A stretch of 33,964 bases of DNA from Escherichia coli (GTDB lineage Bacteria > Pseudomonadota > Gammaproteobacteria > Enterobacterales > Enterobacteriaceae). Positions 12,039-12,152 of the stretch are shown here, piece after piece. How positions within the stretch are numbered: position 1 is the stretch's first letter; each line of letters begins with the position of its first letter. The DNA lies in assembly GCF_003334385.1 (NCBI RefSeq), contig NZ_QOWN01000048.1. One strand, 5' to 3'. The position numbers were made by a program, and so were the translations under genes. The notes under the pieces were generated by a model. It did not search any database, was not told where the DNA came from, and was given only the letters and a program-made list of their open reading frames with translations.

Positions 12039-12152
12039 ATGACCACACAATATGGATTTTTTATCGATTCCAGCCGCTGTACTGGCTGTAAAACCTGCGA
12101 ACTGGCGTGCAAAGATTTTAAAGTTGGTTACGTATCGTTTAAAATCAATTAG
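12039..12152 (+). pseudogene. ynfG: ynfG 5' remnant: Fe-S subunit gene disrupted by prophage integration
   Basis: ATG 10 bp after the ynfF stop encodes MTTQYGFFIDSSRCTGCKTCELACKD (the first ferredoxin-type Cys motif of a DmsB-like subunit), then diverges to FKVGYVSFKIN-stop after about 26 conserved codons. Everything downstream is phage-like. Confidence 0.7.

Follow-up and report, generated by a model that had tools for sequence, protein, structure and literature searches.

A prophage junction at a TTTAAAG core within ynfG and the division of the ynfEFGH-dmsD operon in Escherichia coli

A described phage attachment site and the junction in the window

The Stx1a phage φPOC-J13 has been found inserted in S1742 of S. 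flexneri and, upon lysogenisation of MG1655, in the homologous gene ynfG (Gray et al. 2014, PMC4193171). Phage 75/02 Stx integrates at the same ynfG/S1742 site (PMC5447701), which is also occupied by the Stx1a prophage of the crow strain RM10410 (PMC10562709), and competence for excision and integration has been shown for φPOC-J13 (PMC4193171, PMC4606844). No statement of a 7-bp core, TTTAAAG, was found in the descriptions of ynfG/S1742 integration that were consulted. The target gene is part of ynfEFGH-dmsD, which has been treated as one anaerobically induced operon in which YnfG is the electron-transfer subunit linking YnfE to YnfH and DmsD is a Tat signal-peptide chaperone (PMC5203670).

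The stretch of E. coli DNA analysed here (the window; 33,964 nucleotides) is 99.94% identical to MG1655 over positions 598 to 12123. The first gene of the operon, ynfE (7118 to 9544, plus strand; 808 amino acids), and the second, ynfF (9602 to 12028, plus strand; start at 9605 according to the K-12 annotation), are both intact, with 100% nucleotide identity to K-12 and scores above the cut-offs of NF041885 (1796 bits; cut-off, 1675) and NF041884 (1775 bits; cut-off, 1650), respectively. The ynfG open reading frame that follows (12039 to 12152, plus strand) is truncated. Its product, MTTQYGFFIDSSRCTGCKTCELACKDFKVGYVSFKIN, is encoded by 37 codons before the stop, and translation, alignment with K-12 and NCBIfam comparison assigned codons 1 to 28 to the host and the remaining nine codons and the stop to a phage arm. 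Over nucleotides 1 to 85 of ynfG (12039 to 12123), a stretch that reaches into codon 29 by one base, all 85 positions agree with ynfG of K-12 MG1655; from 12124 onward the agreement with K-12 ynfG drops to chance level.

Residues 1 to 28 of the truncated peptide are those of YnfG and contain cysteine group I (C14, C17, C20, and C24), so that the fragment keeps 4 of the 16 cysteines that full-length YnfG carries in four groups. In the comparison with the DmsB-type family TIGR02951, it covered only positions 1 to 25 of the 161 profile positions and scored 37.3 bits (cut-off, 214.1). The fragment therefore has neither the 16 cysteines nor the full-length TIGR02951 match of a four-cluster YnfG/DmsB protein, and PGAP labels the equivalent piece in related strains as a 4Fe-4S binding protein that is incomplete and missing its C terminus. 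An earlier note, made from the letters of this DNA and their open reading frames, had proposed that integration of a prophage truncated ynfG and that only the first ferredoxin cysteine motif was retained, with a stop after 37 codons, and both proposals were borne out, the insertion lying after codon 28.

The position of the breakpoint was compared across 5,426 complete E. coli genomes with a 160-nt probe centred on it (query base 80 corresponding to window position 12123). The probe matched in 5,318 of these genomes. All 39 partial matches that were sampled throughout the ranking end at 12123, within annotated ynfG. The whole junction is present in 82 genomes (1.5%), and approximately 5,200 have an empty site. 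A probe of 1.5 kb gave the same junction count, and RM10410 was among the genomes that it matched.

Because 12123 is an exact and shared breakpoint and 82 genomes have the whole junction, the divergence of ynfG at 12124 is an insertion breakpoint and not allelic drift. The earlier note had allowed for natural allelic variation as the explanation, and a local rearrangement or an assembly chimera might be proposed in the same way in place of phage insertion. These readings are refuted, and we give them practically no chance of being correct: identity is complete (85 of 85 nucleotides) up to 12123 and at chance level thereafter, the 21.8 kb downstream are collinear with one prophage and with an isolated phage, the identical junction is found in 82 independently finished genomes and is absent from the roughly 5,200 with an empty site, and nothing was found in their favour.

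The breakpoint is also that of φPOC-J13 and 75/02 Stx, as judged from the ends of the phage records and from primer matches. The record of 75/02 Stx starts to match at 12117, that of POCJ13 at 12124, and that of PhiR5_2 at 12140, all within 17 nt of the breakpoint. The primers published for the φPOC-J13 junctions include S1742_up and Stx_phage_up, which match the window with 0 mismatches at 11799 to 11823 (plus strand) and 12945 to 12963 (minus strand), with a predicted product of 1,165 bp versus the published 1,155 bp, and the Stx_phage_dn/S1742_dn product in strain SW070917, a relative that shares the junction, is 1,224 bp, exactly as published. The ynfG/S1742 attachment site is thus already described, and the insertion in this strain is a further instance of its use.

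An integrase gene of another element lies near the left end of the window. The open reading frame at 462 to 1757 (plus strand), beside rspB, encodes an intact 431-amino-acid tyrosine integrase and corresponds to K-12 intQ, at the end of the Qin prophage. In MG1655, intQ is a pseudogene abutted by IS2E, and the window departs from MG1655 exactly at the IS2E end (positions 1 to 597 are divergent). The intact intQ counterpart indicates a Qin-like element in this strain whose integrase is undisrupted, approximately 10 kb from the prophage in ynfG.

The prophage to the right of the breakpoint

The DNA from 12124 to the end of the window at 33964 belongs to a 933W-like lambdoid prophage that is approximately 61 kb long in related strains, as indicated by PHROG assignments and by a match to SW070917 over the whole length: positions 12100 to 33964 are 99.5% identical to the SW070917 prophage over all 21,865 nt. 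At least 80% of this interval is covered in 47 genomes. The window breaks off among the tail and internal-virion genes; in relatives, the part of the prophage beyond this point is that of a lambdoid phage whose capsid is N4-gp56-type, which is the 933W type. An stx gene is not among the annotations of PhiR5_2 and the SW070917 prophage, the closest relatives, and the window does not include the late region.

The best phage record was that of Escherichia phage PhiR5_2 (PV340546; recorded host, E. coli K-12 MG1655), with 98.4% identity over the first 4.4 kb (12140 to 16500) and the same gene order as in the window (ant, ant, ibrA, ibrB, the giant open reading frame, and so on). The PhiR5_2 record does not display the att site, as its ends stop before the core is reached, by approximately 17 nt on the side represented in the window and by 2 nt on that of int, and a literature search for this phage gave no relevant paper. 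The next best records were those of the Shigella phages 75/02 Stx (KF766125) and POCJ13 (φPOC-J13; KJ603229), Stx1a-converting lambdoid phages with the same attB and breakpoint. They match at 98 to 99% in the 3' end of int and the arm beside it, and at 89 to 98% in the integrase-distal arm. However, just 34 to 39% of the first 4.4 kb aligns with them, and the prophage in this strain is a mosaic variant.

The prophage sequence begins with a noncoding integrase-distal att arm (12124 to 12560), in which the ends of the phage records fall. Antirepressor genes follow at 12568 to 13734 (plus strand; PHROG 377 and 6904, annotated antA/AntB in relatives); the first of the pair is an N-terminal Ant fragment (12568 to 12855), and full Ant homology begins at residue 55 of the open reading frame at 12943 to 13734. 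Genes for an IbrA-like protein (PAPS-reductase-like, 408 amino acids) and an IbrB-like protein (ParB-like, 214 amino acids) occupy 13931 to 15786 (plus strand; PHROG 2302 and 2159; IbrA/IbrB in PhiR5_2). In SW070917, the point that matches the end of the window is closely followed by a gene whose product has a YadA C-terminal domain. Eib proteins carry a YadA C-terminal domain, and the prophage may be of the Eib/IbrAB type.

On the minus strand, the open reading frame at 15875 to 16399 encodes a 174-amino-acid protein annotated in a relative as a Panacea-domain protein; the Panacea domain is of the antitoxin type. A single open reading frame of 2,792 amino acids (16550 to 24928, minus strand), whose product is annotated with an LPD5 or LPD38 domain in relatives and is listed as hypothetical for PhiR5_2, takes up one quarter of the window. 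Further prophage genes in the window, recognised from PHROG assignments and the annotation of relatives, are those for Hok/Gef, Lom, a tail fibre, and internal virion proteins. When the window was searched for the 3' part of ynfG, ynfH, dmsD, and the integrase gene of this phage, all four were absent.

Attachment core, arms, and the far junction in relatives

The earlier note had proposed that the remaining 3' portion of ynfG be located at the other end of the prophage and the att core defined from the two junctions, and both were found in relatives that share the junction. In strains ES5 and SW070917 the far end of the prophage consists, in order, of an integrase gene (387 amino acids), 40 to 52 nt, TTTAAAG, ynfG codons 27 to 205, ynfH, dmsD, and clcB, all co-oriented; residues 27 to 205 of YnfG in SW070917 are identical to those of K-12. 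The same heptamer stands at 12117 to 12123 in the window, where it forms nucleotides 79 to 85 of ynfG (codons 27 to 29). In these relatives ynfG codons 27 to 205, ynfH, and dmsD thus lie beside the integrase, approximately 60 kb away from ynfE and ynfF, in agreement with the proposal that the latter two genes were parted from the Fe-S and anchor subunits and from dmsD. The far junction lies outside the window; in this strain it is presumably the same as in its relatives, at the end of a prophage that is presumably complete.

The integrase-side junction (int, core, and ynfG) was found in 89 genomes, and the O104:H4 outbreak strains 2011C-3493, C227-11, and HUSEC2011 are among the matches listed. 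The junction of the type in the window was found in 82 genomes, and the difference between the two counts indicates that some lysogens have a different or deleted integrase-distal arm. In ES5 the operon is interrupted twice, by the prophage in ynfG and by an island of approximately 11 kb that leaves ynfE as two pseudogene fragments; besides IS100 and IS66-family elements, this island encodes a 525-amino-acid site-specific integrase of its own.

The phage attachment site was rebuilt from the two junctions as ...GAGCAACAAC-TTTAAAG-TTGGTTACG..., a reconstruction backed only by the more distant phage ST-35. When attB was compared with the reconstructed attP, TTTAAAG was the sole exact identity; around the core, 23 of 47 positions agree, including 7 of 7 in the core itself, and the extra matches are mostly on the 5' side. 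In attB the core is flanked by an imperfect inverted pair, CAAAGAT and ATCTTGG, and core and flanks together would have the layout expected of core-type integrase sites. A search of a phage collection with 507 nt of the reconstructed attP did not yield an uninterrupted attP derived from virions: the records of 75/02 Stx, POCJ13, and PhiR5_2 each have their ends at att, and their int ends are 98 to 99% identical to the reconstruction. The integrases of ES5, SW070917, and PhiR5_2 share 99.7 to 100% identity, those of PhiR5_2 and ES5 being identical.

Only ST-35, a P22-like Salmonella phage, spans both arms, and its core differs. The attP of ST-35 is contiguous, and both of its arms align with the reconstructed attP at the same spacing, whereas the central region of approximately 100 bp differs; we take this region of ST-35 to contain the reverse complement of the 3' end of the thrW tRNA gene. 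The SW070917 integrase shares 70% identity with the P22-type Int of ST-35. Because the corresponding ST-35 arm is contiguous with int, the sequence to the right of 12123 can be recognised as the att arm that normally stands beside int. Since the core region differs while the arms are conserved, the two phages would have different targets (ynfG versus thrW), which suggests that target specificity was changed through replacement of the core region.

The paralogous gene dmsB was considered as a secondary target and rejected, as the equivalent position reads CTACAAAG and has no core. At the position of the core, K-12 dmsB has GACTACAAAG versus GATTTTAAAG in ynfG, and TTTAAAG is missing. The missing core in dmsB may be the reason why only ynfG is targeted.

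The integrase-distal arm contains two exact 14-nt direct repeats of ATGCAAAGCTTTGT (12197 to 12230), detected in a repeat search, which are spaced 20 bp start to start and lie 74 to 114 bp from the core. The repeats are conserved in the attP of ST-35, and each holds the palindrome CAAAGCTTTG. Their position and phasing are reminiscent of the X1/X2 Xis sites of lambda, and they probably serve as sites at which recombination proteins bind. Together the two repeats can also form a hairpin (12195 to 12234; 17 bp, -22.7 kcal/mol, z = -4.3), with CUCACUUUUG after it. The place of this hairpin in the circular phage would be that of sib/tI in lambda, downstream of int and the core, and in the prophage it is downstream of ynfF and the ynfG fragment. 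No covariation support for a sib/tI-like RNA was found in the comparison with ST-35, in which, of two substitutions, one disrupts a base pair and the other strengthens one, and the repeats are more economically read as DNA binding sites. A T-rich segment further into the arm (12362 to 12405) was considered as an insulating intrinsic terminator and rejected; its fold is no better than that of shuffled sequence (z = -0.59), and it is absent from the terminator scan.

The integration thus resembles that of lambda and P22 in having a 7-bp core, int beside one arm, and direct repeats with 20-bp phasing on the other arm. It differs from that of lambda, which is intergenic, and from that of P22, at the 3' end of the thrW tRNA gene, in that a protein-coding gene is targeted, within its 5' part. 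A further difference from phages that target tRNA genes is that this phage brings no replacement for the displaced segment, which had been entertained in the earlier note as a way in which a full reading frame could be restored. Neither phage arm encodes a homologue of the displaced part of ynfG. The arm in the window contributes nine unrelated codons and a stop, and the integrase-side arm adds GTG-AGC-AAC-AAC in frame (V/M-S-N-N) before the core and nothing more. Because no replacement segment is supplied, ynfG is inactivated.

The open reading frame that results at the integrase-side junction has 183 amino acids and could in principle be a working YnfG, with the phage restoring its own target, because the in-frame GTG start comes from the phage arm and the PGAP annotation of the frame in ES5 and several O104:H4 genomes is that of an intact "DMSO/selenate family reductase complex B subunit". 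However, this is very improbable. The encoded protein has 12 of the 16 cysteines and has lost the whole of group I (C14, C17, C20, and C24), which in four-cluster proteins of the DmsB/NarH type ligates one cluster and gives a ligand to a second. Furthermore, the sequence ahead of the GTG (CGCTTTCAAGTG) contains nothing like a Shine-Dalgarno sequence, and PGAP calls the same remnant a pseudogene in SW070917 and other genomes. The divided PGAP calls are an annotation inconsistency and not evidence of function.

We are highly confident that the window contains the integrase-distal junction of a prophage that integrated site-specifically at TTTAAAG in ynfG, splitting the operon and not replacing the end of the gene. 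In the proposed event, a 933W-like lambdoid phage would have entered attB inside ynfG through site-specific recombination by a tyrosine recombinase, with strand exchange within TTTAAAG (ynfG nucleotides 79 to 85, codons 27 to 29). The left product would be ynfE, ynfF, and ynfG codons 1 to 28, followed by nine codons of the phage arm and a stop. The right product, as read in relatives, would be the integrase gene, TTTAAAG, ynfG codons 27 to 205, ynfH, and dmsD in the same orientation, so that ynfG would be inactivated and the operon split by a prophage of approximately 60 kb.

Consequences for Ynf and Dms reductases

With this structure of the insertion, YnfG is lost, and ynfH and dmsD are parted from the ynfE promoter. 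DmsD has been described as essential for the maturation of DmsABC (PMC12096835). Loss of Ynf reductase function together with polarity on dmsD is a plausible outcome.

An alternative to which we give a substantial but somewhat less than even chance is that the insertion is nearly silent, with YnfE and YnfF, expressed from the ynfE promoter, pairing with DmsB and DmsC, and with dmsD expressed through read-through from the int region or from an internal promoter. Identity between K-12 DmsB and YnfG is 94% across the full 205 residues, and that between DmsC and YnfH is 57%; thus, DmsB and DmsC might stand in for YnfG and YnfH. Lubitz and Weiner are said to have reported in 2003 that Ynf and Dms subunits are interchangeable. 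On the transcriptional side, int, the ynfG remnant, ynfH, and dmsD are co-oriented, only 40 to 52 nt separate the int stop from the remnant, and a scan of this interval detected no strong terminator-like site. Occupancy of the site in 1.5% of complete genomes, among them those of successful pathogens such as O104:H4, is also consistent with a mild effect. However, the literature describes ynfEFGH-dmsD as one FNR-dependent transcription unit (PMC5203670, PMC2634741), and the region from int to dmsD has 2 consensus promoter sites versus 3.2 in shuffled sequence. A literature search for an independent dmsD promoter yielded only a sigma-54 binding site, detected by ChIP inside ynfH, 50 bp upstream of dmsD (PMC4591121), which favours an internal promoter but is not decisive.

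Integration might also rewire transcription in both directions. The ant and ibrAB genes are co-oriented with the FNR-activated ynfEF genes and begin approximately 440 nt downstream of them; in the circular phage they are located downstream of int, in the leftward early operon. The phage genes might thereby come to respond to anaerobiosis, while the 183-amino-acid ynfG remnant, ynfH, and dmsD would be placed under transcription from the int region of the phage, and the hairpin at 12195 to 12234 would serve as an insulator. We regard this combination as unlikely.

Beyond correct annotation, the importance of the insertion is small, as this is a documented site of Stx1a phages in Shigella and E. 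coli. Genome assemblies can be screened for the insertion by means of the TTTAAAG core and the exact breakpoint, and lysogens at ynfG would constitute a natural test of the dependence of dmsD on the ynfE promoter.
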